From: Candidatus Omnitrophota bacterium
GTDB taxonomy: Bacteria > Omnitrophota > Gorgyraeia > Gorgyraeales > Gorgyraeaceae
Direction: 5' to 3'
Assembly: GCA_018824145.1 (NCBI GenBank)
Contig: JAHJHC010000032.1
Span: forward strand, 5,330-69,329
DNA: 64,000 bases
The position numbers were made by a program, and so were the translations under genes. Positions 4,153 to 63,882 of this stretch are shown piece after piece. Each line of letters begins with the position of its first letter. Position 1 is the first letter of the stretch. Under the pieces are notes generated by a model. It made no database searches and was not told the origin of the DNA. It saw only the letters and a list, made by a program, of their open reading frames with translations.

Positions 4153-4153
4153 G

Positions 4154-6902: not shown

Positions 6903-7715
6903 TTATTCAGCCTTACTTTTATTTTCCTTGGAATCCGCCTCCGGAAATGCGGATTTCTTGGCCCCTGAAAGGCTATCTTTAGTAAGACGCGCCTGATGCT
7001 GCCACGTAAAAAACAACACCCCTGCCAAAAGGCCGCTAAATATAATAATAACGAATATTACTATCCAGGTCATGGTCTTTGAAGGAGAATCCGCCTTTAT
7101 GTTGGCATCTGCCAACATACTAGGAGAAGGCGGCCCTCCGGCAGTAACAAGGATCTTCTCCATCTTAGCAATATCTTCATCTATATTTTCTATTGCAAGT
7201 AAATTCTGACGGTAAATACCAATGTGACTCTGACGGCTAACTGACTCATCAGCCTGTGTAGTTCCAATTTCACTTAAACGTTGAAAAATACTATTGGCTA
7301 TCTCCTCAGCCTTCAGATAATACTCTGTGTCTTCAAGATTAGCTAGAATCGAGTCTGTGCGTTCCCTGAAATCAAGCAATTTAGCATCAGCTACAAGCCA
7401 GACATCTCTTACCTCGATTTCAAAGACTTTAACTTCTGAAGGTGACAGTTCCACCGTCTCTTTATACAAATAGAAGATAGATCTATCAGTATCATATTCT
7501 AAGTCCAAGCCAGCTGAATTTATAATATCATCGGGTTTTATCTCTATTGGTAAATACTTTTTAACCGGGGTAGTTTGTGTTTTTGTCTTTGATGGGTTAA
7601 CTACAACAATCTTAAAGGTCACGCTTTCAGCGGCCTTTAGTTCTCCTGAGTTTATAAAACTCCACACTGAAAACACTAATAAACCCCACACTACATTTTT
7701 TAAAATTACCCGCAT
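6903..7715 (-). CDS. Hypothetical single-pass membrane or periplasmic protein, the first gene of the ATPase-like operon.
   Basis: The 270-aa protein has an N-terminal signal or anchor helix (VVWGLLVFSVWSFINSG) and a C-terminal TM (MTWIVIFVIIIFSGLLAGVLFF). An AGGAGG SD lies about 8 nt upstream of the ATG. It shows no similarity to subunit a. Confidence 0.5.
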   Translation of the reverse strand: MRVILKNVVWGLLVFSVWSFINSGELKAAESVTFKIVVVNPSKTKTQTTPVKKYLPIEIKPDDIINSAGLDLEYDTDRSIFYLYKETVELSPSEVKVFEIEVRDVWLVADAKLLDFRERTDSILANLEDTEYYLKAEEIANSIFQRLSEIGTTQADESVSRQSHIGIYRQNLLAIENIDEDIAKMEKILVTAGGPPSPSMLADANIKADSPSKTMTWIVIFVIIIFSGLLAGVLFFTWQHQARLTKDSLSGAKKSAFPEADSKENKSKAE

Positions 7716-28900: not shown

Positions 28901-31900
28901 GGTTGCAGTGGAGTACTCGACGTAATCCTGAACTTTATATCTTCTGCAGCCAGATTCAGAGGCAGCAGATTATCATGCGCACCAACTGTATCCCATGTAT
29001 ATGTATTTTCATTAGCAACTCCTGAGCCGTGTTTATTATTGGCAACTCCATTCTTTATCAACAGCCATTCACCTGATGTCCCTGAATCCTTATTCCAGTA
29101 TTCGAGTTTTACTGCAGAAACACTATCACCTATAGTATTCCATTTAATTACAAAGGATGGCGTCAATGAAGTAACATGAAACTCCTCACTGCCTACAGGA
29201 TACGCAAATGTAAATGAGGCTGTTATTTTAAATGCCTCTGATGTAGTAGTAGTTGCATCATCATAATTATCATTGGCATCTTGGATCCTTATCTGTACAT
29301 TATTCCCGACTTCATTAGGAACACCAGCCGGATCCCATGCCCCACCAGCAGATGCTGGATTATATCCTGCTACTCCGTCATCTACGTCAACATTGGCTTT
29401 TAAGAGCACCTCACTTGTTCCGGTGCCATAACCGTCATAATCTATATATATATCTACAGCACTTACATCTCCGTCATAATGCCACTTGATCAGCTTATCA
29501 GTTGCACCTACCTGCCAATTATGTGTATCATCAGGCTCGTCTATATATATCTTACCAGCTACCCTGAAGTCTGTCTGCATCATGGCATTTACATCATCAT
29601 CAAAGTTGGAATCTGCATCCCGGACCGCGATACGTCCCTGCAGGGTCCTTGTTGAAGGTACTGTTATTGTGGCGCAGCTTCCTTGAGCAGTAGACCAATC
29701 ATCCATTATCGGCGTATCTGTCCCAAAGTTAAAACCTCCTGAACCTGTTGAACTATAGTAAATATCTACTGTATCAACCTGTGCGCTTGTATCCGTCCAT
29801 GTAACTTCCTGGTTAGTAGCACCTGTTATCCATACGTTTGCTACATCCGGTGGATCTGTAGGAGTTATTGCGACATTTGATAAAACAGGGTATGCGCTGA
29901 ATGCACCTGATTCTCCTTCTACATCAGCATCGACTCTTATCACTGTATCCCTTACCCTGACTGTACAGGCATTGCTCTTTACATCAGGAACTGACGACGG
30001 TAGAGTAAAGTCCTGCGGGTTGCCATTACCTGCTGTTGCTACACCGCCGCTGTCTAATTGATGCTCGACTCCGTCATCACCGTCATAGAGAAATACATAT
30101 ACAGTGCCTAAAGCACTTCCATAGGCAGAGAATTTTACTATCTTACCTGTATCTCCGACTTTCCAGTCAACGAACGGAGAGTAATCTACTGTAGGTGTCT
30201 GGACTAGAATATTAGCCCTCATATCCATGGCAGCTGAGGCATTGCTCTTTATATCTGTAAAACTTGCATTGTCATGCACTACCTTGAATTTTATGGTATC
30301 CACAAGGGGTGTACTAATAGGGATAGTCCAAGGATAGTTTCCGCTTCCTACCTTTGAAGGCAATAAACCTGTATTGAACGCCTCTACATTGAATGGATTA
30401 AGGCCTGTCACAACATCATATTCGTCTCCTGAGAAATTTCCGGAAGGAGACGCAATTATTTTTACATAATCCAATTGCCCGTGGTCTACCTCCCAGGATA
30501 TGGTCTTTTCCTCTGTTATCCTCCATGTAGCTGTAGCTGTAGGGGCAGTAAGGGTAAGTGCGCCTTTGATCCTGAAAGCATCACTTGGGACAAATGTTCC
30601 GTCTGTGCCTGACTTTTCATAATTTGCGTCTTCAATCAGTAATATATACTCGTCAGTTACCGGGGTCTCCGGTACCTGCCATTGGCTCGCTGTGGATTGT
30701 TGTGTAGAATTTATAGTCGCAAATGTGCGGTCTTGAGCTATTACATTGGAATAATTATCAACACCATTATTTGTAGAGTATTTTACGTTTACTGCATAGA
30801 TACGTCCGTCTCTTTCCCATGTTATAGTATTGGAACTCGCACAGTTTAAACCTGCCGAAAGCGCGCCTACAGTAGGTGCTATCAGCCTTAATTGACCTTT
30901 TACCATAAAGTCAAGAGATTCATCTGTGGCATATGTATCAAACGGAGCTACTGCATCAGATACCTTTATAAGTGAACCATGAGCGGCATCTACTCTGGTA
31001 ATAAAGTCGCCTTGTGCTGGGTCTGTTGGGATAGTCCATTGATATGCGCCTTTATTTGCTGCTGCATCTCCTGCTTCTCCTGACTGCTCAGTGAGCTCCA
31101 CATAAGATTCACTTACGTCTCTGGTGTAGAATACCTTTACGTTGCCCACAGGTCCGAAAACATTCCATGACACTGTATTAGCTGTTGTACCATCCGCAAC
31201 CCACGTTACACCTTGTGTAGGGGCAGTAACTTCTATATCTCCGCATAGCACAATAGTAGCTGATTCCAATTCTGTATCTGGCTGGTTCGGAGTTACGGCT
31301 GTAATCCTGAATTTAACATTTGTCGCAGCAAGGTTTACTGGAAGCGGCCCTGTTGAATCAGCATCCCATGTATAACTATTTTCAGTGTCTCCCCAGCTAT
31401 TGTTGGCAAGGCTGGGTTCTATGGGAGTCCATCCATTAACATTATGGAAATACTCGAGTTTCACTGCGGTTATATTCGTACCGCTGGTCTTCCATTTTAT
31501 GAGGTACCCAGTAGGATCTGTATCATCATCAATGTGATGAACTTCTCCTACTGCAGCGGGTTTTGTAAACTCAAATCCGCCAAGTATAGGGAAAGGATCT
31601 GATGTATCAGTTGTTACAGTATATGCATCAACATCATCTATTTTAATCTTTACATTGTTTCCAACATAATCACCTATACCTTCGTCAGTCGGATCTCCGG
31701 GATCTTCCCATGTCCAGCTATTATACCCGCTTGAACACGCAATCGTAGTAAGTGTCTCATCCATAGTGCCATCACCATTATAGTCAGCATAAATCTTTGC
31801 ATCCCCTATAGTACCTTTAACATTCCATTCAATCAGACGGGTCGTATCCCCTACTGTCCAGTCCAAACACGTGTCATCAGGCTTAGAAATAACGATCTCA

Positions 31901-34900
31901 CCTATGACGTCAAATGGATTTGATTCTCCATAGACAATGCCAGTATAATCTACAGGAGAAGTCTGGGCATCCTCTATACGAATATTCGCGCTGTTTGTAA
32001 GGGTTGCAGGAAGCACTACAGTGGAGGTATATGATAAACTGGCTGGAGGAATACCTGTCTTATCTATATTAGATGCAAGGGTCTTTGGATATCCTGCGCC
32101 TGAATTACCATCTTCCAGAATTATATTAATGTTCGTGGTCGGAGCAGCTATTGCACTCCATTCAATAAGATTACTATTACTTTCAGCTATCCACGCCTGT
32201 GAAGGTGTAGTAACTGTTATTTTTGGCTTTAATGTAAAAAAGGTTGTTTCTACATCGATATCATTATTCTGGTTCGATATAACACGGATCTTACATTGCT
32301 CACTTCTCTGCTGTTGTTTTGTATCTGCAGCATGCCATAAATAAGTATTGGTGCCTGACTTAAGGCCTGCTGGATTATTATCATGTCCGTCATATGCATT
32401 ATCGATCGTAGTGTATCCTGTACCTTCAACATAAAGTTCGATCTTTACAGTTGACATAATACCAGTTGCTTCCCAAGTAACATTATGGTCTTCTCCAACA
32501 TACCATGTCCCAGGTGTAGTGATCGAGGTAAGGTCTCCTTTAATAATAAATGTATCACTTTCATCCTGCAGTTCATATGGAGCGCCCAGGCCATCATAAT
32601 TTATTGCAGTGGTACGGATCTTACACAAGTTATAAATCTTATCGGGGACTGTCCAGCTTAGAGTAACTCCAGTTTCACCGGATGCTCCTGGAGTCCGTGA
32701 ATCAGGAAGGCCTGATCCTCCTGCATTGTCCAGCCAGTCACTTCCGTCCCATAATTCAAATTTAAGATTCCCTGTATCTCCGTACTTCTTCCATTTTACT
32801 GTAACACTGTCTCCAACAGTCATCTCCTGATCCAACACAGGCTGCATCATCTCTAATTGGCCGACAACAATATTTGCCTCACCTACAGCAGTTTCTGCAT
32901 ACACATCCTGTCCATCAAGGGCATCTTCAACTCGGAAAAGCACCTTATTGTCCATAGCTGGATTTGTTATATCAGAATCTATAGCAGTATAATCTGTAGA
33001 AGTTACGCCTCCTGCTAAATCACTGCCGATCTGTGTCCACTGTGTATCACCGATATTCTTATAAAATGCCTTTAAATTAGTAAAACTACCGACATTCGAC
33101 CAATTAATAGTATGTACTCCTGATCCTATTGTTATGGTCTCATTCTTTGTACTGGGATCCCCAGGCGGCTGGTCAAATAAAATATTTCCTTTAAAGGCAT
33201 GTGTAGGAGAACCAGCCATTATAGGCCCGAATATATCAAATTCGTGGTTCATCTCTCCTACTCTGATCTTCACTTCAGGCGCAGTACTTTCAGGGATATT
33301 AACAGTATAAGGCGTCCCAGGGACATTTGTGCAATAATCAGGGGCAATTTCAGTGGCTCCGGAGAATGCTACCCATGAACCATCAGGATAACTTGCTCCT
33401 GAGTTTGTATTATACATAATCTTTACATTCCCTACGTCACCCTTTACATTCCACTCTATGTCTCCTGTACTCAAGACATTGTATCCCTGATTAGTTAGAG
33501 GGCTGTCAATAACGATTTTACCTCCTATACTAAAAGTCGGAGATATAGAAACAACATCCGTATCTTCATATTTCACCTGCTCATCATCTTCTTCCACTCT
33601 TACCAGCTTGATCTTCGCATTATTATGCGCAACAGTATTAGTCTCAGGGATCGTCCATAAAGAACCACTGGCTGTAGACGCCCATGTTGGCTGTTCATAC
33701 CAATTGGTTCCATCAGGTGTAGAATAGAGTCTCACCCAGCCAATTAAACCTGTTGTGGTCCAGGTAATGGCTTTACTTTGTTCTATAATCCACAGGTCGC
33801 CGATACCAGGCGGAGTCCCTATAAAAATCCTTGGTTTTATCTCAAAGTCATACAGAGATTCATCTGATACAGAGGTATCATTATGGTCTCTTACACGCAC
33901 TCCGGCCTTATCAGTTGTAATTGTCTGCCTGTCATTCTCAGCAGGTATACTCCATGAGTAAGGTGAAGATCCTCCTCCGATTTGCGATGCAATCGTAAAA
34001 TCTGTATAATCATTATTCCCGCTATCTGTATCTAAGAGTATATCTACTTCAGCTATACCACCTGTAACAGTCCATGTAATAGTCGGAGCGCCTGTAGCAG
34101 GCGGCTGTGAAAATCCGTCAACAAACCATAACTCTATATTCTGGTCATCCATGCCAGGTGAACCTAAATACACAGCACCTTTTACTACAAAATTACTCTG
34201 AGAGTTCGCAAAGACATAGGTACCGTCATTATTATCATAAATCTTTACTCTATATGTTATACCAGCTGTGGCAGGAACCTGCATTGAATGATGGCAAATA
34301 TTGCTTCCATCTTCATTTTTGTCATGAGCAACAGTAGCTACAGGTATATCATATAAAGTGCCTGAATCATCATCATAGTATATTTCGCATGTACCTAAGT
34401 CCCCCTTATATCTCCACTGCACATCTATATCCGCGCCACCCACATAATATACCTCGCCACCGTTAGGCGCTTCCATCCAATGGTTCTTTTCGCCTCCTGA
34501 TATTGCGTAAAGTTTACCTTTAATATGGAAGTCAATATCCGTAGCATGCTTTACACTGGTCTCGTCTGCGTCTTCTATCTTTATCTCATTACCGGAAGTA
34601 GTACACTTATTTGCAGGGACTGTCCAATCGTAATAGCTGTTACCACTTGCCGGTAAAGTAGTTATAGGCGTCCCAACATTTCCTAAACCATCTTCCCATG
34701 TTACACCATCCGGCGCATAATATAATTTTAAATCACCAAGGTCATACCCGCCCGTCTTACCCACGTTGTCATTAACTACCCACTCGATCCTGAAGGTCTC
34801 TTCAGCGATCAATGCATCAGCATTTATATTGCTTGCATCCGGGCTAGTTATCTCTAACTTGCCTAGTACAGTCAGTTCTGAAGATTCCTTATATACATCA

Positions 34901-37900
34901 GTCGCATGGGCAACGCTCTCAACCCTTATACGTATATCATTGTCAGGAGGAGTAACTTGCTTGGTAACAGGGCAATCTATCTTCGGCCATGAAAACGAAT
35001 CTACATTTGATATACCACTCGCTATAGTACCACCCCAACCCCCAGTTCCTCCCTCTGTATCATATTTTACATTCACAGTCTGTACACCGTTTGTTCCTGT
35101 GCCTCCGCCTTCTGTCTCCCATGTAATATTATAGTTAGTAGTTCCTACATAAACAGTTCCAGTAGATGGAGAAAGATTGACAAACCTTGCCTTGATAGTA
35201 AGTTTATCTGCAACAGATATAGATTCTATGCGATCATCGTCTTTTGCCCTGATTTTTATCCTTATCTGTGAATTCAAACCATTGTCTCCAACCTTAAAAA
35301 CAGTATCATCATCTGGTATAGTCCATGTATATGACTCATCAGTTGCAGTAACTACACCTGGAGTATCAACAATAGCATTAGTGTAGTTATCAGAACCATT
35401 ATTCTTTGAATAATAAATATAAATGTCTCCTATGCCTGAACCTTCTGCATCCCAGATAATAGCATTCTGGGCCCCGCATTCCCAATCAGGGCTCACAGCA
35501 GGAGAGCCGGCATTCTGCGGAGGTGTTGTAAGCTCCAGACTCCCAAGGATAGCAAAGTTATTTAGTGATGCGTCACTTACATCATCTTCATCTCCTACCT
35601 TAACAGAATACACCTTTATCTTACATTGCTGGCTTACAATGCCCGGAAGATTCTCAATGGTCCAAGTGTAATAAGACTCATCCTCATATGTAGTATCATA
35701 ATTATTTTCAGAAGGGATGGAGCCGCCTAGTAAGGCATCATAGTCAGTGCCGCCATTTGTCGAGTATGCTATCATTACATCTCCAAAATCAAAATCAACA
35801 GGCTTCCACCTTATATCCATTGTCTCGCCTATTGTCTTCACTATACCTGTAGCATCAGGATAGCTCAGCTTGATCTGGGGTTTTACAGCAAAATCAGCTG
35901 TCCCTGTATTTGATTCACCAGCAGTCCCTGTAACCAGATCTTCATCTCCCTGTAAGGCCACCATTATCATATCGTTTGCCCCTTCATGCACAGGAAGGAC
36001 TGTCCAGTTGAATGTTCCAGCTGTGATGTCAGTTGTATCAGGCGTGGTCAGTTCGTAAGTATAGTTGCTTCCGCTGTTCTTTGAGAGCATTATCTTGGCC
36101 CATCCGGTTATAGATCCGTTCACATCCCAGGTTATAGCAGTTGTCTCACTTGTGTCAGAGATCTTAACAAAATTTGTAGTCGGAGCTGTAACTACTATAG
36201 ATCCTTTTATCTTGAATGCAGGGCTTTCATGATATATATTCGTCAGACTGTAGTCCTGGACCTTTACATAGACTTCATTATCCAGGTCATTAGGGATAGT
36301 CCATGCATATTTTAAATCAGTTGAAGGCTTATCTACTCCAGGGGCTATTTCAGCGTAGCCACCAGCCCCTTTCTTATAAAACACCTTTACCTTATCATCA
36401 GTTGTGCTCCCCTTTAAAGTCCACTCTATATCCCTCTGGGTTCCATATCTCCACACATCATTAAGTTCCGGCTTTGTAATTGTAACTACCTGCTCTATTG
36501 TGAAGACAGCAGCTGATTCATCATCAATATCACTAGGATATGCAGCACTCTCTATTCTGATCATGGCTTGTGTAGATTCCGGAGCTGGAACAGGATCCCA
36601 TGTCCAAAAACACTGGTTCGAATATGTAGTATTATAATTATTCGCCACATCGATCCCGACTCCGCCGTTTAACTTTTCCCATGTACCTCCAGTATTCCTT
36701 GAAATGGATATATATACCTTATTATTACCAACAGGCCCTACATCACCTTCGTATTCCCATATAATGTCATGGGAAGTACCCACCTGCCATGAAGGCGCGC
36801 CACCATCATGCTGAATAAGGGTCACGGTAGCGTCTATGTCAAAAACAAGGTCAGATTCATCCTCTACTCCTGTAAGCTCAGCCTGTGAACTCTCTATCTT
36901 GACCATGGCTTCATCACTTATAGGCAACTCCGGAGTCCACTGGTAATAGGATTGGTTCGTATAGGTAGTATTGTAATTTAGATTCGCTGCTACTTCATCT
37001 ATATACTCCCATGCAACACCGCTATTCCTTGATACGTAGAGTTTCACATTGGTCGTGGACAGGTTGCTTGTATTTGACCATACAATATGTCCGTTATCAC
37101 CTGTGGTACTGCCTGTAATCCATCTCTCATCTCCACCCATAGGCTCTACAAGTGTTATTGAACCTTGTTCTATAGTGATGCTGGCGCTTTCGCCGTATAC
37201 AGTCGAATCCGCTATGTCAGACTGGACTACCTTTATCTTGGCGTAATCATCCTGAGCAGGCTGGACAAGACTAAAAGGTATATCCCAATCATATGAACTC
37301 CCAGTGCCGGATGCCCCTGCAGGCTCATCCAATTTAATAGGCGTGTTATATGATAAGCCGTCATTATTTGAATAAAATATATTTACCGTGCCATCAGTAA
37401 TGCCTGTACCGAAATGTCCATGTTTCATCCAGGAAATAGTCTTATCCTGCTCACCAAGATACCAGGTTGTAGGAGAAGTAGGAGTTACACTGGTTATACG
37501 GCCTCTTAATGTAAACGGCTGAGATATAGTTTGTACAGTTGTATTCGGGGAATCAGGGTCATAATTTGAAGTTATCTTAATGACACAATTCGTGCCGATT
37601 AAGTTCTCTCCGTCTATTGCAGCAGGTATTGTCCAGGGAAAAGTGCCGCTTCCGCCGTCGCCTGCTCCGGTACCGACACTGGTAGTAGTGCTTAACGGCG
37701 TACTAAGGTAAGTCTGTCCTCCGTCAATAGAAAGCTTTATTGTAACAGTTGTCGTACTTAAAGTATCCAGGTGCCCCAAATAGTCCCACGTAATATCCTG
37801 CTGTTCCCCTATCCTCCAGGTATTTGGCGGCTGGTCAATAGTCAAAACTCCTTTTATAATAAAATCCTCATTGGATATATCAATGTTTCTTGCTGACATA

Positions 37901-40008: not shown

Positions 40009-40515
40009 TTAATCGCTTATTAAGACCTCGAGCTGATTCTCAGATTCTTCTTCGGAGTCAGGCTCAGGTCTTTTTATTCTTTTTGCAGCCCTCACAAAAC
40101 TAATACTTTTTGCGAGCCATTCTTCAGTAATCCTGTTTCCTCTGTTTGGCTTAGTTACCTCATGGTAAGTCACCTTCACAGCATCGCCGACTTTTATATC
40201 GTTTAAACCCTGTTTATGCACCACCTTTGTATCTTCATCAATAAGAAAAGAATAATCAGTATTTGTCTCGGCATCACCTACGGCAATAACCGTGGGATTA
40301 AATCTGGGTGTAAAATAAATAACCTCTCCTACCAACTCTTTTTCTTTAATCATCTCTTTCACAGGAGACTGTTCGCCTTCTCCTTGCTCTTCGTCGTCTT
40401 CCTGAGCAACTCCTGCCCCTATGCCTCCTAAGAGAAAAACCGCTATTAAAAATATGAGACATACAAAAATCTTTTTCATCCCGCTATCCTCCTTACTTTT
40501 AAAAATAATATTCAT
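40009..40515 (-). CDS. Small secreted protein of unknown function, located immediately upstream of and co-oriented with the giant gene.
   Basis: The 168-aa protein has a signal peptide (KKIFVCLIFLIAVFLLGGIGAGVA), an acidic linker, a beta-rich domain and an acidic C-terminus. There is a 15-nt gap to the giant-gene ATG. Confidence 0.6.
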   Translation of the reverse strand: MNIIFKSKEDSGMKKIFVCLIFLIAVFLLGGIGAGVAQEDDEEQGEGEQSPVKEMIKEKELVGEVIYFTPRFNPTVIAVGDAETNTDYSFLIDEDTKVVHKQGLNDIKVGDAVKVTYHEVTKPNRGNRITEEWLAKSISFVRAAKRIKRPEPDSEEESENQLEVLISD

Positions 40516-41780
40516 TTCTTCATCCTATCGCCTTTAGATACAAATGTAAAATCCCTGACTGCACCGTCAGCTGAACGTTTTGTCAGCACGCCTTTTAAAA
40601 CCTCACCATCCCATTTTCCGTGCCAGCTGGCTGATTCACCCAGCTCGTTTGTCTGCATCGTCTCCCACGTAATAGTATCGTCTTTAAGCTTACGTTTCGA
40701 ATAATTTGCATCACTAAAACCTTCCCTGCTTAAATTCAGTGAAGTCAAACGATTGTATTTAAAAATGATTGTATCTTGAGCATTAAAAGCTATGCCCGGA
40801 CCTCCGACTTGCCTCAAATCAATCCTCCAGGTATACCCTTCTATTTCCATCTTCGCCTTTTCAAGTTCTTTTAAGGCATCTTCAGTCAGCCTGATCTTCC
40901 ACACGTAGTCATCTATCTCTTTATTTGCCTCAATGGCTTTATCTCTCTCACTTCTAAGCACATCTAAAGTCTTGTTATAAAGTGCCATGGTTTTATTATA
41001 CTCACTCTTCATCACAGTATGCTGTCTGTAAAAATATAAAATGACAAAGACTAAAACTAAAAATGTTATTCCACTCGAGATCATGTAAATCAGAAATGAC
41101 TTCTTAGGGACAGGTGCCTTCTTTTGTTCCTGTGCTGCACTTTCTATTCTTTTTTTAATCTCTTCTGTAAATTCCCTCGGACCCAAAATTCTTCCTTTGT
41201 GTAATTTTTTTTTAAACTCATCTATCTCTATTTGGGTAACAAATTCTGTGTATCTCTCGAATGTCTTTTCCCTGCCTTTTAAGAGTGTGAATACTTCTTC
41301 AATCTCACTACCTAACTCAGGAAAATGCCTTTTTTCCGGGTTTAAAAATTGAGGATAACTGGAAAAAGGATACGTCTTGATGTAATTTGTAAAGTCTACT
41401 CTTTTGGGATTCAGATGGATATGTCTTAAGAGCGGTAAAAGAGAACTCTCTTTCTCTGCCAGCTTAGCCTTAAACCTTTCCTGGAAAAGGTGCCCTTTTT
41501 TATTATACTTTCCGTTAAATAATTTTGTATATATGGAGTTTATATCATGCATAATACTTGAAATACCAATCTGGTTCTGTAGCTCAATAAGCATATGAAG
41601 ATGGCTAGGTAGTAAAATATAGCCGAATAGCTTAAAACTATATTGCTCTTTATATCTATTTATTAATGACACATATTCTCTATAGTCATCAGGCTGTATA
41701 AATATATTTTGATTGTGACCACCTCTTGAAGTCACGTAGTACAAAACATTTTCAACATATACTCTCGGAAGCCTTGCCAT
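40512..41780 (-). CDS. Membrane-anchored fusion protein with an N-terminal IS200/COG1943 (RAYT-like) HUH domain, a TM helix, a coiled coil and a C-terminal WETMQ domain.
   Basis: The N-terminus MARLPR...YYVTSRGG...LLPSHLHMLIE...GHLFQERF...LRHIHLNP matches the COG1943 Y1-transposase fold with HUH = HLH. A TM helix ISSGITFLVLVFVILYFY follows. The C-terminus ...ITWETMQTNELGESASWHGKWDGEVLKGVLTKRSADGAVRDFTFVS is shared with two other ORFs. The gene overlaps the next gene by 4 nt (ATGA). Confidence 0.65.
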   Translation of the reverse strand: MARLPRVYVENVLYYVTSRGGHNQNIFIQPDDYREYVSLINRYKEQYSFKLFGYILLPSHLHMLIELQNQIGISSIMHDINSIYTKLFNGKYNKKGHLFQERFKAKLAEKESSLLPLLRHIHLNPKRVDFTNYIKTYPFSSYPQFLNPEKRHFPELGSEIEEVFTLLKGREKTFERYTEFVTQIEIDEFKKKLHKGRILGPREFTEEIKKRIESAAQEQKKAPVPKKSFLIYMISSGITFLVLVFVILYFYRQHTVMKSEYNKTMALYNKTLDVLRSERDKAIEANKEIDDYVWKIRLTEDALKELEKAKMEIEGYTWRIDLRQVGGPGIAFNAQDTIIFKYNRLTSLNLSREGFSDANYSKRKLKDDTITWETMQTNELGESASWHGKWDGEVLKGVLTKRSADGAVRDFTFVSKGDRMKK

Positions 41781-41797: not shown

Positions 41798-41850
41798 AAA
41801 ATGCCTGGCACCTATCTAAAAGTGCCTGGCACTTTCTATCTAAAAACAAA
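41798..41850 (-). promoter_or_regulatory. Candidate operator or promoter region of the HUH-fusion, secreted-protein and giant-gene operon. It is a tandem 21-bp direct repeat, and each copy carries the palindrome TGCCTGGCA.
   Basis: tgcctggcacctatctaaaa (41802-) and tgcctggcactttctatctaaaaa (41823-) are centred about 25 and 45 bp upstream of the ATG at 41780. An AAGGAG SD precedes the ATG. Confidence 0.4.
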
Positions 41851-41873
41851 AAATCCAGGCGCATTGCCTGGAT
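41842..41873 (-). terminator. Intrinsic terminator separating the TMTC cluster and mini-gene from the giant-gene operon.
   Basis: The stem ATCCAGGC/GCCTGGAT (41853-41860 and 41866-41873) has the loop GCATT. On the minus strand it is followed by UUUUUGUUUUU. Confidence 0.6.
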
Positions 41874-41880
41874 TTCTCCT

Positions 41881-41979
41881 TTAAGTTTCGGCAATCTGCC
41901 TATCCGCCTGAAGCGGACGCACGATTTTGCGTCTCCAGATTACTCTGGATTTGCCTTTTTCGACCTCAAATCTCTTCAA
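41881..41979 (-). CDS. Possible 32-aa basic small protein ((M)KRFEVEKGKSRVIWRRKIVRPLQADRQIAET). It starts at TTG and carries its own promoter and terminator.
   Basis: A perfect AGGAGG SD sits at 41989-41984 with a 4-nt spacer to the TTG at 41979. A TAA stop at 41883-41881 is followed immediately by the terminator. The ORF track omits it because it is under 60 aa and starts at a non-ATG codon. Confidence 0.25.
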   Translation of the reverse strand: MKRFEVEKGKSRVIWRRKIVRPLQADRQIAET

Positions 41980-57533: not shown

Positions 57534-58268
57534 TTATCTGTTAAAAAACAGGCCTTTTTTCTTCTTTTTCTCTTCTTTCTTTAAAGGTTCGGTTTCTTGC
57601 GCGACAATTTTTTTAACGCTTTCTTCTTTTACCTCCACCACCTCCTGCTCTTCCTGAACAGGTGATTCCGCAGCCTCATCTTCTACTTCATCAGGTACGG
57701 CTTTCACTTCTTCTTTGATAATTTTCTTCTCTGATTCAATAGCCTTATCTCCTACCATTCCTTCTTCAACCTGAGTCCCAGACTCTTCTGGTTCCTCAGA
57801 TATCATTTCTTTTCCCAGGCTGACAAACGTATAATCCTTTTTTTTCTTTTCGTCTACATGCCAGCTCAAAACACCCCGCATGTTTTCACTGGAAATCTGA
57901 CCTCTCCAAAACGCAATACCTTTCTCTTCACTGGTCTGCATTGTCTCCCAGACAACGATTTCTTTATCTTTACCTTTAAGTCTTACCGTATAACCACTGG
58001 ACGGAAATCCTTCCGAAGATAATTTCTCCGAAATAATCTTATTATTTTCAAAACGCAATGTATCACTCTCTTTTTTATCGGTCTTGTCTGACATTTCTTT
58101 CAGCTCAATCTGCCACACAGTATTGTTAAGCCCGGCTTTTGCCTCAGAAATCATTTCTTGTTCTGTCCTGGGCTCTTCATCTTTTTCTTTTTCCCGCGCC
58201 ATACAAACCGAAACTAATCCTAGAGTTAAAATTATAAATGCGGAACATATTGAAATCTTCTTAATCAT
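57534..58268 (-). CDS. Secreted WETMQ-domain protein with a Glu-rich C-terminal tail (paralog 2).
   Basis: It has a signal peptide ([24 protein letters not shown]). The core ..[83 protein letters not shown] is followed by an acidic tail. Confidence 0.6.
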
Positions 58269-59757
58269 TATCAGTTTCCTCCTTTATATTATCATCTGAT
58301 TTTTGTTGTCCCTTTTTAACATATGCCTTTATAATCTGCTGCTCTTCTTTGGGCTTATCCTTGGAATCGGTTTCTACTCCCTGTATTTTTTCAACAACAT
58401 CATATCCTGATACAACTTCGCCGAATATTGTATGTTTTTTATTTAACCAGGGAGTCTGGTTTGTAGTTATAAAAAATTGGCTTTTGTTTGTATTCGGCCC
58501 GGAATTCGCCATGGCCAAAATCCCCGGCTTATCAAACTTGACTTCTTCACTTACCTCATCCTGAAACGGCTCTCCCCAAATAGATTCACCGCCTGTTCCA
58601 GTGCCGGTCGGATCTCCGGTCTGGATCATGAAATCCTTTATTACACGATGAAATATTATCCCTTCATAATATCCTTTTTCAACCAGGCCTATAAAATTCT
58701 CACACGCCATAGGTGCTATGTCAGGAAAAAGCTTCAACACTACAATACCATGATTTGTTTTAATTGCAACTAAAGTTTTCATTTTCAATTCCTCTATCTT
58801 CTTTGCACGCATTTCTTCTGCTACATAATCCCGGAACCTTGCTCTTTCTAGTAAATCTTCGAAATAGTCCTTAATAATCTTGCGTTTTTTGACTGTAGTA
58901 AGCATATCCCTGTAATATTTTTGCTTTTGTTCAGTGTATTTCTCAATATCTGCGTCTCTCTTATTCAGAAGGCGAAAGACAGCAACCCCGTAAAAAAACT
59001 CCGCTACGATAAAGTCGCCTTTTTCATGGCTAAGAATTCTATAAGCATCATCTTTAGGGATTTTCCAGAGGTCTATCAATGCTTCTAAAGACATTATATT
59101 TATCCAGGAGGCACCCTTCTGGCCTATTTCCTTCTTTTCAATATACGTATCATACCAAAGCCTTGGATTTTTTTTAACCTTCTCGGCAAACTCTTTAGCC
59201 TCTTCTTCGGTCTCAAACCTTATGTATTCACTCTCGAAAGAATTATATTGATTTAAAAATTTCTGCTTCATCTCTTCCTCGGTTACAGTTACCTCTGGCT
59301 CGGTCTTTAGCTTCATGTATTTATTGATTATCAATAAATCCTCTATACGACGCTCAAAACTATCTACTCCCTCCCCTAATTGCATAGTTACCCAGATCTT
59401 GTAATTATCGGTTCCATACTCTATATCTTTTTCTGATACCAACCTTTTTAGTTCCTCTAAAAGTTCCTCTCTTGAAACAGTAATATTAAGCCTGGCAGAT
59501 TCCTGTCTATATATTAAATTTTGCCATGCCTCTTGCCTTATCTCTTCTTCTGTCCGAGTCTCTCCTCCCTCTTTAGGACCTAATCGGGTAAAAAGAGCAG
59601 CTGTTTTATAATAATAATTAAACTCTTCCAAACTAATCGGCCGTCCAAAGGCCTCGCCGATGACTTTGGATGAGGAGTCTTCTCCATATGCCGTTCCGTT
59701 AAACAAATTCAATAAACTCAGGGAAAATAAAAAAATTATTATAAGTCTTTTATCCAT
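58261..59757 (-). CDS. Periplasmic peptidyl-prolyl cis-trans isomerase, a cyclophilin-type catalytic domain fused to a SurA-like N-terminal chaperone domain.
   Basis: It has a signal peptide. The C-terminal segment [20 protein letters not shown]...[26 protein letters not shown]...[20 protein letters not shown]...HTIFGEVV is canonical cyclophilin. Confidence 0.8.
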
Positions 59758-59761
59758 ATAT

Positions 59762-60289
59762 TTATTCGACTATCTTTATTTCAACGGCATCAGATTGAAC
59801 TTTGTTTTTAAAGGTGTCTAAGCCGATTTCCTCGCCATAACTATTTTGATAAACTCCGGTGATCTTATACGTGCCGAGTTCCTTAAAGTCAAAATAATAC
59901 TTTATGTCCCTTGGTCTATCAGAACTTATCTCCTCTCCTGTATTTAATAATACAAGGTAACCTGTCTTAGGAAGGCCGATATCTTCGGATACTCTGGATT
60001 CTTTGAACGGCAAGTCTTCTCCTGATGGAGATGTTGCAGAAAGGTATATCTCCCGGTGCGTTTCAGGGCTAGACTTTGAATTTACATAGAATCTCTTATT
60101 TGCATATATTGGTTTCTTACCCTTATTCTCCAGTTTAAAGACTACTGGTATCGGATCAGTTTTCTTATATTCAGTTTTTTCAAATGATAGGCTTAATTCC
60201 AAAGATTCATCTTTTGCGATGACTTTGCCACATTGACATAGTGGAAGTATTATGGCTAATAAAAGTAAGATAATATAAGTGATCCGCAT
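59762..60289 (-). CDS. Hypothetical secreted or lipoprotein-like protein.
   Basis: The 175-aa protein has an N-terminal signal with Cys residues (ILPLCQCG). Confidence 0.5.
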
Positions 60290-60304
60290 GTTTATACGTT
60301 ATAA

Positions 60305-60736
60305 CTATTGGCTCATAAAAGAAAACTCAAATACACGGCCATCCGTATCAATTTTCCTTAAAGTACCTCTCATAACATCGTCTTTAATTTCACCCTGCCA
60401 AAGAGCGACATTACCTTCTCCATCCCTTTGCATTGTCTCCCAGATCACTGCCTCTTCTTTTACTATGACCGTAAACCCCGTAGGAGAATAACCCGCGTTT
60501 TCTAAGTTCATCGAAGAAACCCTGCCGTCTATAAAAGTTATCGTATCGATTTCCGGATTTTGTCTTTTATCACCCGTCGAAGTCAAACTGATAATCCATT
60601 CTGTATTATTCAGCTCTTCCTTTTTAGTCTGAGCCAGTTCCCTGGCCGACATATTCTGAGCTTGAGAAACACCCTGGATGAAAATCATACTACTTATTAT
60701 TAAAAAAATTAACATTTTTTTCATAATAGACATCAT
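60305..60736 (-). CDS. Secreted WETMQ-domain protein (paralog 3, minimal).
   Basis: It has a signal peptide. The core ..TEWIISLTS..DTITFIDGRVSSMNLENAGY..FTVIVKEEAVIWETMQRDGEGNVALWQGEIKDDVMRGTLRKIDTDGRVFEFSFMS is the same domain as paralog 2. Confidence 0.6.
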   Translation of the reverse strand: MMSIMKKMLIFLIISSMIFIQGVSQAQNMSARELAQTKKEELNNTEWIISLTSTGDKRQNPEIDTITFIDGRVSSMNLENAGYSPTGFTVIVKEEAVIWETMQRDGEGNVALWQGEIKDDVMRGTLRKIDTDGRVFEFSFMSQ

Positions 60737-60743
60737 GCCTCTC

Positions 60744-61985
60744 TTATTTACGCATTATATTTTTACCTTCATATGTTTCCCAGGTAAGCAGATATTTCCT
60801 CACCCAGTCCAAGTCACTATCTCCGCTTTTAGCCAGCCTTAAATAATGCCTGAAGTGTTCTATTGCCTTTTCACGATTAATCAAATATTCCGCATAGATA
60901 TAACCCAAATTAAAATGGGCATACGCATCTTCTGGATTTATCTCCACGGCCTTTAAAAATTCAGAAATAGCCCGTTTGTATTCCTGCCTTTTAGTATAAA
61001 ACACCCCTAAATTATAGTGCATCTGGGACGTTTCTTTCAAAAGCCTTGTATTTTGCCTGGAAATCTCTGTGAATCTTTTGGGAATACGTTTCGCCTCCCG
61101 CTCCAATGCATTATTTTTCTTTACTGCATCGCTATAATTTTTCTTATATTCACTTAGATTTTCATTTATTTTTTTGACTTCTTTATCTATTTTGTCCTTA
61201 GCCTTTTCAAGATAATTAACCTCTTTCTGACTCTTTGCATAATCATTTTTGAATTTATCGATACTCTTATTTAAATCCTTGATCTCTTCTTCCTTATCAT
61301 TGCGCAGCTCCGCTAATTCCTCATCTTTATTTTTACGTAACTCGGCTATTTCTTTATTTATCCGTTCATTATCCTTCTTGAATTTATCGAGTTCTGCCTG
61401 AGTATCTTTAAGATCAGACTTCAATGTCTGGCATTCCTTTGACAAACCAGCAATTTTCTTTTCACTCTCTATTAAAGCCTTTTCACTCTCTTGTTCCAAA
61501 GTTAAAATTTTCTTCTGTAACTCTTTTACCAACGTGCCTTTTTTCGCCTTTTCGTAAGCAGTTTTAAAATGCCCGCTCTCAGACTCTAACTCTGCCACAG
61601 TATCCTTAAGCTGTTTGAGTTCTTCCTGTATTTTTTGATTCAGACTCAACATCTCTTCTTTTTCTTTTTCAAAGGCCTCTTTTTCTAACTCCAGACTCTC
61701 TATGGATTCTTCTAAATCTGCCACGCTTCTTTTCTCCTTAAGAAGGCGCTTGGCCTGAATCAATAAATTATTGCGATCCTGTTTTACTGCCTCAAATTTT
61801 TCAAGGAGTCCATTATATTCCTTCTCAAGATCACGTTTATCTAAACTAATCTCTTCATTGCCTGGCTCTGCGCCTTCTAATTGGCTTATAGAATCATGCT
61901 TGAGTACAAAGCCCGCCCCTTCATTTATCAAAAAAATAACTAATATTGAAATCACTGTCCTTAATAATAACTTATATTTACTCAT
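60744..61985 (-). CDS. Coiled-coil protein with an N-terminal anchor or signal and a C-terminal TPR module.
   Basis: The 413-aa protein has a long K/E-rich heptad region. The C-terminus YNLGVFYTKRQEYKRAISEFLKAVEINPEDAYAHFNLGYIY is a TPR pair. Confidence 0.55.
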   Translation of the reverse strand: MSKYKLLLRTVISILVIFLINEGAGFVLKHDSISQLEGAEPGNEEISLDKRDLEKEYNGLLEKFEAVKQDRNNLLIQAKRLLKEKRSVADLEESIESLELEKEAFEKEKEEMLSLNQKIQEELKQLKDTVAELESESGHFKTAYEKAKKGTLVKELQKKILTLEQESEKALIESEKKIAGLSKECQTLKSDLKDTQAELDKFKKDNERINKEIAELRKNKDEELAELRNDKEEEIKDLNKSIDKFKNDYAKSQKEVNYLEKAKDKIDKEVKKINENLSEYKKNYSDAVKKNNALEREAKRIPKRFTEISRQNTRLLKETSQMHYNLGVFYTKRQEYKRAISEFLKAVEINPEDAYAHFNLGYIYAEYLINREKAIEHFRHYLRLAKSGDSDLDWVRKYLLTWETYEGKNIMRK

Positions 61986-62019: not shown

Positions 62020-63882
62020 CTAATCTCTAATATCTTTTATCCCAACAGGGGATTCATCTTCTATCTCCGCCCCCTCTTCTGTTACCTCAATCTCATCTTT
62101 TAAATCCGAAGAATACTCTTTATATGGCTTTACTTTCTCCTCAGGAGGTTCCTTAACCTCTTCAAAATCTGTTTCAGTAGTAAAAGCACTGTAGTCTTCG
62201 TAATCTTTTCCCGGCATATATCCATACTCTCTAGCATCTCCTGTAGTTAAAAAATCTCCGGTTACGATATGCGGGGTAAGCATAATTAACAATTCTGTCT
62301 TATCGGTTGATTTAGTAGTTGATCTAAATAAATTGCCCAACAATGGGATATTGCCTAAAAAAGGGACCTTCTCTGTACTCTCTGCCTCCTCTTCTCTACG
62401 CATACCTCCGATAACAATGGTCGTACCGTCTTTAACCATAACTGTAGTTTCTGTAGTGGAAGTGTCAATTATCGGTATCTGATTGCCTGATGGTGTAGTA
62501 AGAGTAGATGTGACGCTGGAAATCTCCGGCTTTATTTTCATAGTTATATATCCATCGTCATTTATAGTCGGGGTTACTGACAACTGAATCCCTACGTCTA
62601 TAAAAGTCACTTCTTCCGAGACAGTAGTAGTGGTCTGTCCTGTAGTAGTAGTGGTGGTAACATACGCCTGGCGTTCACCGACGTGGATCCTGGCCTCCTG
62701 GTTATTTATTACAGCCAACTTGGGATTAGAAAGGATCTGTGTATTGCCCAGAGTCTGCAAATATTTAACTAGAAAATCCAGGTCCCTTTTAGAATCTATC
62801 ATACCTATATGCATATTTTCGCCAACAGTAGTTTTTGAACCTCCTGCATAGCTGGTCGCAGTACCACTAAATGGGATAGAGCCTATCTCACCAGCCATAT
62901 CCCTTACAACCTCCTGTCTCGATCTCCAAGTATCAGTAGTAGCTTGTACAGCACTAAACGGATAATTCCCTAAATAAGTCATTCCATATTGCTGACCTAA
63001 ATTATGTATCCCCTCCCATTCAACACCATAATCTACTTGATCGATTAATTTAATTTTTATAATTTGGGCGTCGATCAAAACCTCTTTTGTCTTTGTGTCT
63101 AATTTTGCAATCAATTTTTCAACCTCCTGCATCCTCTCCGGCAATGCCTGGACAACAATAAGATTCGAACGTTCATCTGCCTTGACTGAACCAACCTTCT
63201 TGGCATCCAGTCGCAGTTTGAGTTGTTCTTCTATATCTTTAGCCATGGCATATTTCAGGGTAAATACCTGCACTAAATTTTCCTGTTCCATAGTCGCCAA
63301 AGCTCTTTCAATTTCTATAATATTTTCCGGTGTATCCATAATCAAAGCAGTGCCCGAGTCAGGCTCGACCAATACCCTTCCGATATCGCTCTTTAAGGTA
63401 TCGAAAAGGGAAAATGCCTGGTCAGGAATAGCATATTTGAGCCGGAAGGTCTTGACCTGGCGAATATCGGCAAAGTTCTTCCCAAAAATCGCCCTATACT
63501 CTTTTTCTGTCATTATATTATAGATATCTCCCTGTTTCATATAAGCAAGCTCGTTCGAACGTAACATTATATCAAATATATCTTTAATTAATACGTTTTC
63601 AACCGTAAGTGAAATCCTGCCAGTTACTTTTTTTGTAGTAATAATGTTCAAACCTGCTTTCAATGCCACAAACTTAAGGGCATCTATTATGTCAATATTC
63701 CTCAGGTCTAAAGAGATCTTCCCTTGCATGCCTCCGGTTATAGGTATAAGAGGTCCGTTTCCTACGGCACCAGTATCATCTAAAACCATCTGTGCTAACT
63801 GGGTAGTATCTTTCTCAACTGCAAACGAATAGTTTACTAATAAGGAAATTAAGACTGTAAATAAGCATGTCTTCTTTATCAT
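62020..63882 (-). CDS. Secretin (PilQ/GspD family outer-membrane channel).
   Basis: It has a signal peptide, an N0-like domain (ISLDLRNIDIIDALKFVALKAGLNIIT), an N1-like domain (VQVFTLKYAMAKDIEEQLK) and the secretin hallmark VPFLGNIPLLGNLFR. Its ATG overlaps the upstream gene stop (ATGA). Confidence 0.85.
   Translation of the reverse strand: MIKKTCLFTVLISLLVNYSFAVEKDTTQLAQMVLDDTGAVGNGPLIPITGGMQGKISLDLRNIDIIDALKFVALKAGLNIITTKKVTGRISLTVENVLIKDIFDIMLRSNELAYMKQGDIYNIMTEKEYRAIFGKNFADIRQVKTFRLKYAIPDQAFSLFDTLKSDIGRVLVEPDSGTALIMDTPENIIEIERALATMEQENLVQVFTLKYAMAKDIEEQLKLRLDAKKVGSVKADERSNLIVVQALPERMQEVEKLIAKLDTKTKEVLIDAQIIKIKLIDQVDYGVEWEGIHNLGQQYGMTYLGNYPFSAVQATTDTWRSRQEVVRDMAGEIGSIPFSGTATSYAGGSKTTVGENMHIGMIDSKRDLDFLVKYLQTLGNTQILSNPKLAVINNQEARIHVGERQAYVTTTTTTGQTTTTVSEEVTFIDVGIQLSVTPTINDDGYITMKIKPEISSVTSTLTTPSGNQIPIIDTSTTETTVMVKDGTTIVIGGMRREEEAESTEKVPFLGNIPLLGNLFRSTTKSTDKTELLIMLTPHIVTGDFLTTGDAREYGYMPGKDYEDYSAFTTETDFEEVKEPPEEKVKPYKEYSSDLKDEIEVTEEGAEIEDESPVGIKDIRD

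Follow-up and report, generated by a model that had tools for sequence, protein, structure and literature searches.

WETMQ, a new family of predicted periplasmic barrel proteins from the secretin locus beside Omnitrophota giant genes

What is the small domain that recurs in three proteins encoded near a giant gene of Omnitrophota? These bacteria are abundant, ultra-small and largely uncultured, some of them are predatory or episymbiotic, and they encode the longest known bacterial proteins. The stretch of DNA analysed here, 64,000 nucleotides in all (the window), holds a giant ORF of 10,669 aa (7984..39993, minus strand) and the three proteins in question, whose shared domain we call WETMQ after one of its motifs. 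We conclude that the WETMQ family is new although its fold is common and its type of locus is already published, and that it is probably an unrecognised part of the Omnitrophota secretin machinery.

The first-pass annotation, made from the letters of the window, had placed the domain in three ORFs, and its coordinates are correct: all three are on the minus strand and encode 422, 244 and 143 aa. Copy C (60305..60736, from the ORF and a domain alignment) is the shortest, with the domain aligned at 60308..60622; in the AF2 model its signal peptide (aa 1 to ~26) is followed by a short helix (31-42), and the eight strands of the barrel span aa 45-142. Copy B (57534..58268, from the ORF, alignment and BLASTP) has a signal peptide, a barrel (aa 45-155; 57804..58136, minus strand) and the Glu-rich tail that had been claimed for it, about 85 aa rich in Glu and Lys (57537..57803, minus strand) that end in a basic-aromatic motif. 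Copy A, placed by alignment and BLASTP, is the barrel at aa 313-422 (40515..40844, minus strand) of a 422-aa fusion (40512..41780, minus strand). The hydrophobic starts of the 143- and 244-aa proteins and a fusion segment at about aa 226-250 bear out the two signal peptides and the third copy behind a transmembrane (TM) segment, as had been described.

The common domain of about 105 aa aligned without large gaps in the three copies, with 22 invariant columns that include W..I.L, DT..F, WETMQ, W.G, G.L and F.S. In pairwise BLASTP with composition-based statistics the copies are 36-37% identical, with E values from 1e-17 to 5e-22, and an HMM of the three, run against the six-frame window, matched only A, B and C, each at an E of about 1e-53, the next match having E > 2. 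A similarity that is compositional only, the objection foreseen in the first-pass annotation, is ruled out by the composition-corrected BLASTP together with the six-frame scan. The idea of a threefold duplication, taken as a local event, has to be given up, since the fusion copy is an old paralogue kept across many genomes: 22 of 24 fusion-type barrels fell in a pure neighbour-joining clade, and their identity to the soluble copies is about 31-33%. Most genomes carry one or two soluble copies.

The family is neither tiny nor restricted to the window, as it comprises 1236 representative clusters (784 with E<=1e-10). Those members that have a name are all 'hypothetical', and nearly all of the loci are labelled Omnitrophota. 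Across the family, the five residues of the WETMQ motif show no variation or almost none; since successive side chains of a strand point to opposite faces, both faces of strand 5, where the motif lies, appear to be constrained. The WETMQ domain of the three window proteins had no match in Pfam or NCBIfam, the search of 119 members against Pfam at E<=1 returned scattered chance matches only (the best recurring one was CIDE-N, in 13 of the 119 at E 0.012, which is chance level), and the WETMQ profile found nothing among PDB sequences at E<=10. That the family had not been recognised was therefore well judged, and no profile match to a well-characterised family turned up in Pfam, NCBIfam or the PDB. 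We suggest that it merits a new domain entry in family databases.

The AF2 model of the 143-aa protein is an eight-stranded up-and-down beta-barrel (pLDDT 87.9), and it is this antiparallel arrangement that defines the lipocalin/calycin fold. The modelled barrel resembles avidins, lipocalins and designed barrels at the level of the fold only. Against calycins (avidin/streptavidin, lipocalins, nitrobindin) and designed eight-stranded barrels, identity was at most 18% (5-18% for the avidins) and no Foldseek match reached E<=1e-3, and the motif set of the family (WETMQ, FWRG, MRG, DFSF) differs from those of all the calycin families. The avidin Pfam profile covers the biotin-binding residues; no lipocalin, avidin or related Pfam model was among the matches listed for the 119 members. 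Lipocalins carry a GxW on strand A, share structurally conserved regions and have a C-terminal alpha-helix that packs against the barrel, whereas strand 1 of WETMQ reads N-T-x-W, its Trp being invariant and the Gly absent, and in the model no helix follows strand 8, where the 143-aa protein stops. Thus, of the lipocalin-like role that had been proposed, the eight-stranded lipocalin/avidin-like barrel stands as a model, but the lipocalin sequence signature and C-terminal helix are missing. An usher role, proposed along with it, is without support, ushers being large outer-membrane barrels. The fold comparison also matched the beta-barrel of the CBASS effector Cap15 (PDB 7N34); this match and a riboswitch in the window raised the idea of a cyclic-dinucleotide receptor, which the predicted periplasmic location of the barrel makes unlikely.

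Export is predicted for the family as a whole: an N-terminal hydrophobic segment was found in 232 of 250 members, and we regard the WETMQ proteins as exported, probably periplasmic. A lipobox-like motif occurs in just 19 of the 250, and for its rarity we rejected a lipoprotein pilotin; it is absent from the 143-aa copy, and the 244-aa copy has only an atypical VSVC. Many members carry a basic-aromatic motif at one terminus. A C-terminal KKKGWWxR, joined by a linker with a median of 68 aa, is found in 63 of 247 members, copy B included, and A|WFGKKK stands at the mature N-terminus of 36 of the 247, with an N-terminal stretch of median 78 aa; only one protein has both. Where soluble members have such a motif, the fusion class has a true TM segment and a coiled coil.

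The gene order around WETMQ was compared in 67 species-level loci. It is conserved as an ExeA-like ATPase, a weakly GspC-like protein, a PilQ/GspD-type secretin, a coiled-coil/TPR protein and WETMQ, after which come, as optional genes and in this order, p175, a SurA-cyclophilin, a second WETMQ, the HUH-TM-WETMQ fusion, p168 and the giant gene. The same order was seen in four independent metagenome loci with precomputed Pfam labels. In the window the operon is tightly spaced, with gaps from -8 to +34 nt, and the genes given below with coordinates are all on the minus strand. The secretin (62020..63882; Pfam Secretin E 7.8e-54, and Secretin_N) lies two genes upstream of copy C and scored under the cut-offs of the NCBIfam PilQ, GspD and MshL models, and the weakly GspC-like protein, p229, had an E of 2.7e-4, far below cut-off. 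Immediately upstream of copy C, which starts 7 nt downstream of it, is the gene of a 413-aa coiled-coil/TPR protein (60744..61985). This protein starts with a hydrophobic segment, continues as a long coiled coil and ends in TPRs; its likeness to PilW/Tgl is weak. Between copies C and B is the gene of a periplasmic foldase, the peptidyl-prolyl isomerase (PPIase; 58261..59757), in which SurA_N_2 and Pro_isomerase (E 1.2e-54) were recognised by Pfam and which copy B overlaps by 8 nt; between WETMQ and the PPIase is p175, a 175-aa exported protein (59762..60289) with no match in Pfam or NCBIfam. The secretin, the PPIase and the giant ORF sit where the first-pass annotation had put them.

It appears that the secretin neighbourhood is the more constant one. 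Upstream sequence of 2.5 kb or more was available for 52 soluble copies. The coiled-coil/TPR gene directly precedes 39 of them and is itself preceded by the secretin in 38 of these 39 (its label, TPRcc, comes, like the GIANT_N label used below, from a jackhmmer profile, which can drift on repeats). Seven others follow the PPIase, and for the remaining six the closest gene upstream that bears a label is again the TPR gene, at a distance of over 400 nt. A secretin was within 10 kb in 53 of the 67 loci, so that WETMQ has the conserved co-location with a secretin gene that is looked for in a secretin accessory component; the PPIase was found in 30 loci and p175 homologues in 17. A second class of loci has the secretin, TPRcc and WETMQ with no giant gene within 10 kb (L003, L020, L022, L029, L030, L033, L035, L042, L043, L061, L071 and L074), and because of this class the tightest partner of WETMQ is the secretin and TPRcc pair, not the giant gene. 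The context with giant genes that had been pointed to is therefore conserved in many genomes, with secretin, PPIase and giant gene, but the giant gene is not the partner that WETMQ follows most closely.

A T2SS/T4P-like locus upstream of Omnitrophota giant genes has been described (West-Roberts et al. 2023; bioRxiv 10.1101/2023.11.21.568195), and as in the window a secretin (gspD) and a conserved PPIase come before the giant genes; the PPIase of that paper has a Rotamase_2 domain, whereas that of the window joins SurA_N to a cyclophilin. The text of the paper makes no mention of a small-protein family of the WETMQ type, of an HUH/'transposase' fusion or of a riboswitch, and the words 'transposase', 'secretin' and 'riboswitch' have 0 occurrences in it. 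The WETMQ family, with its 1236 clusters mostly from Omnitrophota, can now be added as a fixed component of the secretin module beside giant genes, and its binding partners, the terminal basic-aromatic motifs and control by c-di-GMP offer testable handles on giant-protein biology.

The fusion gene opens a second operon, with p168 and the giant gene. Its leader contains a c-di-GMP-I-type riboswitch aptamer (41886..41964, minus strand) of the GGC variant, Rfam RF03167, which scored 60.5 bits against a gathering score of 59 (E 3e-12). Immediately 3' of the aptamer is a terminator-like hairpin with a 13-pair stem and a T-run (41848..41878, minus strand), likely the expression platform. Homologues of this aptamer directly precede the fusion gene in 14 of 19 other loci (15 of 20 with the window), so that the operon is preceded by the riboswitch in most of the loci examined. 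Downstream, p168 encodes an exported protein of 168 aa (40009..40515, minus strand); it shares 4 nt with the end of the fusion gene, and 15 nt separate it from the giant gene, the last of the operon. The fusion was followed by p168 and/or a homologue of the giant N-terminus in 17 of the 17 loci with enough downstream sequence, giant N-terminus homologues (by the GIANT_N profile) came after p168 in 23 loci, and riboswitch, fusion, p168 and giant gene kept the same positions in more than 20 species-level loci. An ORF of 136-210 aa just upstream of giant genes elsewhere, considered as a possible further WETMQ copy, is a p168 homologue instead.

The fusion protein begins with a RAYT-like HUH domain (aa ~1-145), in which both the fold and the HUH motif of RAYT/IS200-type Y1 proteins are present. 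After a helical region, a TM segment (~226-250) runs into a long helix to 284, and a helix at 290-310 leads to the barrel, with AF2 strands at 316-415 (model pLDDT 86.9). NCBIfam models scored below their cut-offs (NF047646 68.9, cut-off 80; NF033573 14.5, cut-off 55). Compared with the RAYT protein TnpA_REP (PDB 4ER8), the likeness is limited to the N-terminal domain: the fusion adds a predicted TM helix and a predicted periplasmic barrel, and its gene is syntenic, apparently single-copy and under a riboswitch. His120 of the fusion aligns to Tyr115 of TnpA_REP, which we take to be the catalytic nucleophile of 4ER8; of 83 homologues, 46 have His at the equivalent position, 28 Tyr, 5 Gln, 3 Cys and 1 Asp.

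What, then, may the barrel do? PilP, the HR domain of GspC and the pilotin MxiM are secretin-associated periplasmic accessory proteins that act by docking onto the secretin, and WETMQ is like them in being a small exported beta-rich domain, encoded next to a secretin and often carried on a flexible membrane linker. We propose, at a probability of roughly 40%, that the WETMQ barrel serves the secretin machine as a docking module, tethered and in the periplasm, where we infer both the docking and the partner. The barrel, which we read as an ancient domain, would sit on the periplasmic side of the inner membrane as an Omnitrophota-specific accessory to the PilQ/GspD-type secretin module, a module that in many genomes, and in the window, precedes the operon of a giant, presumably surface, protein. 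There it would bind one common periplasmic partner, most likely the periplasmic domains of the secretin or the adjacent coiled-coil/TPR protein, a guess from gene adjacency, and the paralogues would differ in what each tethers to this partner: nothing for the 143-aa copy, a long acidic linker ending in a basic-aromatic, putatively membrane-seeking motif for the 244-aa copy, and an inner-membrane-anchored RAYT-like HUH domain lacking the nucleophile Tyr for the 422-aa copy. Two observations count against docking, namely that the weakly GspC-like p229 may already fill the usual secretin-docking role, and that the closest folds, avidins and lipocalins, are ligand binders, not docking modules.

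From those same folds it is possible, if doubtful, that a calycin-like barrel binds a small hydrophobic or amphipathic molecule, such as a lipid, an LPS or glycan precursor or a cofactor, in its interior and carries it in the periplasm or, in the fusion, is the sensor of a transmembrane HUH-domain protein. However, the likeness is limited to the fold, as the low identities, the Foldseek result and the Pfam matches listed above attest, the lipocalin C-terminal helix is missing and no ligand can be named; moreover, a free carrier would leave the conserved tethers and the strict secretin adjacency unexplained. That the barrels chaperone the giant protein or its glycans, as dedicated holdases that take hold of stretches of the giant protein in transit and work with the SurA-like PPIase, is close to what had been proposed from the letters. 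In many loci the WETMQ gene is a few genes from the giant ORF and beside the SurA_N-cyclophilin foldase, and the fusion copy shares an operon with the giant gene, but we consider this role unlikely, given the whole class of loci named above, whose secretin, TPR and WETMQ genes have no giant gene within 10 kb of them, and a fold comparison that showed no likeness to known chaperone folds. Very unlikely is a periplasmic immunity protein or inhibitor of the PliC/MliC type, which would shield the wall of a predatory cell against the lytic activities that go with its giant protein: WETMQ did not match the MliC/PliC profile, and the first 10,000 aa of the giant protein had no Pfam domain at E<=1e-3 and hence lend it no support.

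The databases call the 422-aa protein and its homologues 'transposase' or 'RayT', and a 2026 preprint interprets the transposase flanks of giant genes as mobile DNA, which would fit an IS200/RAYT-type element that spread the WETMQ domain around the locus as a passenger. We find this hardly credible. The families named in the preprint are IS110, IS5 and IS1634, not IS200/RAYT; each cluster of fusion homologues was seen on one or two contigs; the fusion barrels belong to a single old clade; and a mobile-element origin of the fusion is ruled out by its fixed place in the operon, by its TM segment and by the loss of the Tyr, replaced by His here as in the 46 homologues. The fusion is a conserved syntenic gene, often without the catalytic Tyr, and not a mobile 'transposase'. 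What is routinely annotated as a 'transposase' directly upstream of many giant genes is instead a RAYT-like domain fused to a WETMQ barrel, a conserved protein anchored in the membrane, and surveys of genomes could wrongly score its gene as mobile DNA next to giant loci.

Apart from the docking module, we also considered that the barrel might be the common periplasmic recognition module of a trans-envelope device of Omnitrophota that has gone unrecognised. As part of the fusion it might couple what happens in the periplasm at the secretin or the giant protein to the HUH domain, which, domesticated, anchored in the membrane and without its nucleophile, would bind nucleic acid in the cytoplasm and add a second, envelope-sensing layer of control on top of the riboswitch. 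We rate this as rather improbable; if true, the fusion would be the first protein to use the HUH transposase fold for transmembrane signalling. The HUH domain might then act on the DNA or leader of its own operon, for example on short palindromes. The inverted-repeat search upstream of the fusion gene established no REP-like hairpins for the HUH domain; it returned the riboswitch terminator and two short palindromes. Both are GTGCCAGGCAC palindromes, located after the riboswitch terminator and ahead of the start codon of the fusion.

The three window proteins of 143, 244 and 422 amino acids, all encoded on the reverse strand (60305..60736, 57534..58268 and 40512..41780, respectively), have in common a segment of about 105 residues, the WETMQ domain, whose alignment contains 22 invariant columns, including W.I.L, DT..F, WETMQ, W.G, G.L and F.S. 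Pairwise BLASTP with composition-based statistics gave 36-37% identity among the copies (E-values of 1e-17 to 5e-22), and an HMM built from the three recovered exactly those three when run against all six frames of the 64-kb window, with E-values of about 1e-53 and the next match above 2. The similarity is therefore true homology, and compositional bias as its source was ruled out by the composition-adjusted BLASTP and the six-frame scan. ORFs, alignment, BLASTP and HMM thus agree with the first-pass annotation, which had placed a common domain in these three ORFs, behind signal peptides in two of them and a transmembrane (TM) segment in the third. The 143-aa and 244-aa proteins have signal-peptide-like hydrophobic starts, and in the 422-aa protein the domain sits after a TM segment and a long helix.

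The suggestion that the family was unrecognised also held. In the three window proteins the domain matched no Pfam or NCBIfam model, its profile gave zero matches among all PDB sequences even at E <= 10, and 119 family members scanned singly against Pfam at E <= 1 gave only scattered chance matches. A word-indexed search returned 230 WETMQ clusters; the best 120 of these have no Pfam domain on record, and where a name was listed it was 'hypothetical protein', the sources being Candidatus Omnitrophota/Omnitrophica and a single Ratteibacteria. When 1.84 billion representatives were searched exhaustively with HMMER, 1236 proteins passed E <= 1e-3 and 784 of them passed E <= 1e-10, and a GTDB scan with one genome per species yielded 67 loci with titles that were nearly all Omnitrophota. 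The few other titles (Planctomycetia, Deltaproteobacteria, WOR-3, Rokuibacteriota) go with identical synteny and are probably loose MAG labels. The WETMQ domain defines a genuine family of considerable size, centred on Omnitrophota and of a common fold, for which there is no curated description.

An AlphaFold2 model of the 143-aa protein, built with a 119-sequence alignment (mean pLDDT 87.9, about 97 across the domain), consists of a signal peptide, a short helix (residues 31-42) and eight antiparallel strands (45-142), and in the 422-aa protein the C-terminal part was predicted to form the same barrel (strands at 316-415; mean pLDDT 86.9). Foldseek gave no match at E <= 1e-3; its weak list was dominated by lipocalins and avidins, the structural matches included small outer-membrane eight-strand barrels, and all of them were at most 18% identical to the query. 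Such low identity and the lack of a significant match point to a predicted minimal calycin-like up-and-down barrel without an identifiable specific relative.

Since an N-terminal hydrophobic segment is present in 232 of 250 sampled members and a lipobox-like motif in only 19 of 250, WETMQ proteins are exported and generally not lipoproteins. Their linkers and tails are of low complexity, rich in Ala, Lys, Glu and Pro. A C-terminal basic-aromatic motif, KKKGWWxR-COOH, occurs in 63 of 247 members behind a tail of median 68 aa, and is carried by the 244-aa window protein (57537..57570, reverse strand); A|WFGKKK occurs in 36 of 247 at the mature N-terminus, straight after an AxA-type cleavage site and a median of 78 aa ahead of the barrel. 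The two placements are mutually exclusive but for a single protein that has both. Family-wide (P0121-P0254), a long low-complexity linker always parts the terminal motif from the barrel, and in the fusion class a transmembrane helix and about 85 residues of helix take the place of the motif. This arrangement suggests that a long tether typically holds the barrel to an element that seeks or spans the membrane; the 143-aa window copy represents the bare, untethered form. One protein among the roughly 250 sampled, P0172 (247 aa), has two tandem divergent barrels, with FKTEQ instead of WETMQ.

The threefold duplication proposed in the first-pass annotation does not stand as a local event. In the neighbour-joining tree, 22 of 24 fusion-type barrels group in a single pure clade, which is old and only about 31-33% identical to the soluble barrels; the duplication is therefore ancient paralogy. 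Among soluble copies, position gives no clean split in the tree.

Four family members on long contigs were found by exact-sequence look-up, and according to the precomputed Pfam labels the WETMQ gene in all four comes directly after a secretin gene (PF00263) and one for a TPR/coiled-coil protein, with an AAA_22 ATPase close by and, in two, a very large ORF two to three genes onward. The 67 GTDB loci were labelled through iterative searches with the window's own proteins; the labels for the TPR/coiled-coil protein (TPRcc; 60744..61985 in the window) and the giant N-terminus come from jackhmmer profiles built on repeat-rich sequences and may be assigned too often, but the Pfam-labelled loci agree with them. 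The recurring order is an ExeA-like AAA_22 ATPase, p229, secretin, TPRcc (about 330-400 aa), WETMQ, optionally the exported protein p175 with the SurA_N-cyclophilin PPIase, optionally a second WETMQ gene, optionally the HUH-TM-coiled-coil-WETMQ fusion, then the exported protein p168 and the giant ORF. Upstream sequence of 2.5 kb or more was available for 52 soluble copies. Of these, 39 come straight after the TPR gene (preceded by the secretin in 38), seven come after the PPIase, as the 244-aa window copy does, and six are separated by more than 400 nt from the TPR gene, which is their closest labelled gene on the upstream side. The fusion gene is followed by p168 and/or a giant-N-terminus homologue in 17/17 loci with enough downstream sequence. 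The secretin scored best against PilQ and GspD and the ATPase against an ExeA-like 'PEP-CTERM-associated ATPase', all below cut-off; p229 matched GspC weakly (E 2.7e-4), and the TPR part of TPRcc weakly resembles PilW/Tgl.

A second class of loci (L003/L004, L020, L022, L029, L030, L033, L035, L042, L043, L061, L071 and L074) has, for example in L003, L022, L030 and L074, the order p229, secretin, large TPR protein, second secretin, TPRcc, WETMQ and AAA_22 ATPase, and no giant gene was found within 10 kb. The protein between the two secretins (about 750-1250 aa) matches the TPRcc profile, and in L003 polysaccharide export genes (Wza, Wzz, Wzy) come after the WETMQ-ATPase stretch. Because of this class, the tightest WETMQ partner is the secretin/TPR pair, not the giant gene; of the placement noted earlier, between secretin/PPIase and giant gene, the secretin side was borne out whereas the giant gene is not a constant neighbour. 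WETMQ proteins are thus best described, from gene context, as predicted accessory proteins of a secretin system.

In the RAYT-like domain of the 422-aa fusion, the two HUH histidines are retained in 73/83 and 75/83 homologues. The position aligned to Tyr115 of TnpA_REP (4ER8), which we take to be the nucleophile, is His in the window protein (codon 120, about 41421..41423) and in 46/83 homologues, and Tyr in only 28/83. A sister group of Omnitrophota proteins of about 320 aa (P0333-P0357) has the same HUH domain, TM segment and coiled coil without the barrel; most of these (29/33) retain the Tyr. The single TM segment with its more basic N-terminal flank, and the signal peptides that the soluble paralogues carry, would put the HUH domain on the cytoplasmic side of the membrane and the barrel on the periplasmic side. 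Just before the barrel, the fusion helix (aa 291-310, about 40851..40910, reverse strand) has YVWKIRLTEDAL, with the homologue consensus YxWKIRLTExAL; it echoes barrel strand 1 (YTWRIDL) and is a weak partial match to positions 1-19 of the three-copy HMM.

Upstream of the fusion gene lies a c-di-GMP-I-type aptamer (RF03167; 41886..41964 on the reverse, coding strand; Rfam scan, 60.5 bits, E 3e-12), directly followed by an intrinsic-terminator-like hairpin with a 13-pair stem and a T-run (41848..41878, reverse strand), and this element is about 70 nt from the fusion ATG. The fusion gene and p168 (40009..40515) share 4 nt, only 15 nt separate the end of p168 from the giant gene, and from this tight spacing the three genes probably form one riboswitch-led operon. 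Of 19 other loci with a fusion gene, 14 have the aptamer immediately ahead of it; in five of the six fusion-less loci scanned it was not found, and the sixth, L014, has one about 940 nt upstream of p168. Between the terminator and the fusion ribosome-binding site, the palindrome GTGCCAGGCA(C) occurs twice, each time after TAGATAG (41802..41832, both strands), and may be a candidate operator site; the 10-mer is found seven times in the window within one mismatch, against 1.9 expected.

An exported, conserved barrel adjacent to the secretin/TPR pair, with tethered forms whose terminal anchors are mutually exclusive and a paralogue that is anchored in the inner membrane and whose gene shares an operon with the giant gene behind a c-di-GMP riboswitch, suggests, tentatively (probability about 0.4), that the barrel is a docking module and that all copies bind the same periplasmic partner within the secretin machine. 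This partner would be either the secretin, through its periplasmic domains, or the TPR protein, and the paralogues would link it to the membrane surface via the basic-aromatic end, or to the cytoplasmic HUH domain via the TM segment. The main rival is a ligand-binding, calycin-like carrier or sensor, favoured by the class of fold and by polar residues that are invariant; we consider it doubtful, and it leaves the tethers and the synteny unexplained. That WETMQ acts as a chaperone for the giant protein is unlikely and is weakened by the giant-less loci, and a PliC-like immunity role appears very improbable, given that residues 1-10,000 of the 10,669-aa giant ORF (7984..39993, reverse strand) yielded no Pfam match at E<=1e-3. 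Fusion homologues are named 'transposase' or 'RayT' in databases; however, residues and synteny mark the fusion as a membrane-anchored HUH protein that has been domesticated, rather than an active transposase, and a mobile-element origin of the WETMQ fusion is effectively refuted.

Omnitrophota giant genes generally have a T2SS/T4P-like locus ahead of them, with gspD and a conserved PPIase among its genes, and pilZ genes behind them (West-Roberts et al., 2023, bioRxiv 10.1101/2023.11.21.568195). That preprint mentions neither the WETMQ family nor the HUH fusion nor the riboswitch; term searches of its text, and a literature search that joined Omnitrophota, riboswitch and c-di-GMP, gave no report of the aptamer found here. 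A 2026 preprint counted 'transposase flanks' beside giant genes and read them as mobile DNA, naming the families IS110, IS5 and IS1634. The locus type is thus known, and the WETMQ family inside it had gone unremarked; the predicted domesticated HUH fusion and the probable riboswitch-led giant-gene operon add to its interest.

Giant ORFs of related loci have only faint Kre9_KNH and Reelin-subrepeat hints on record. Downstream of the window's giant gene, a 270-aa ORF (6903..7715) without a family match is followed by an F-type ATP synthase set (b/delta fusion, alpha, gamma, beta; 1911..6377, reverse strand), of which alpha and beta score above NCBIfam equivalog cut-offs. Past these genes, a 149-aa protein (1449..1898, reverse strand) has a MshEN domain (Pfam E 1e-10), a domain type that binds c-di-GMP, and is possibly another c-di-GMP link besides the riboswitch.
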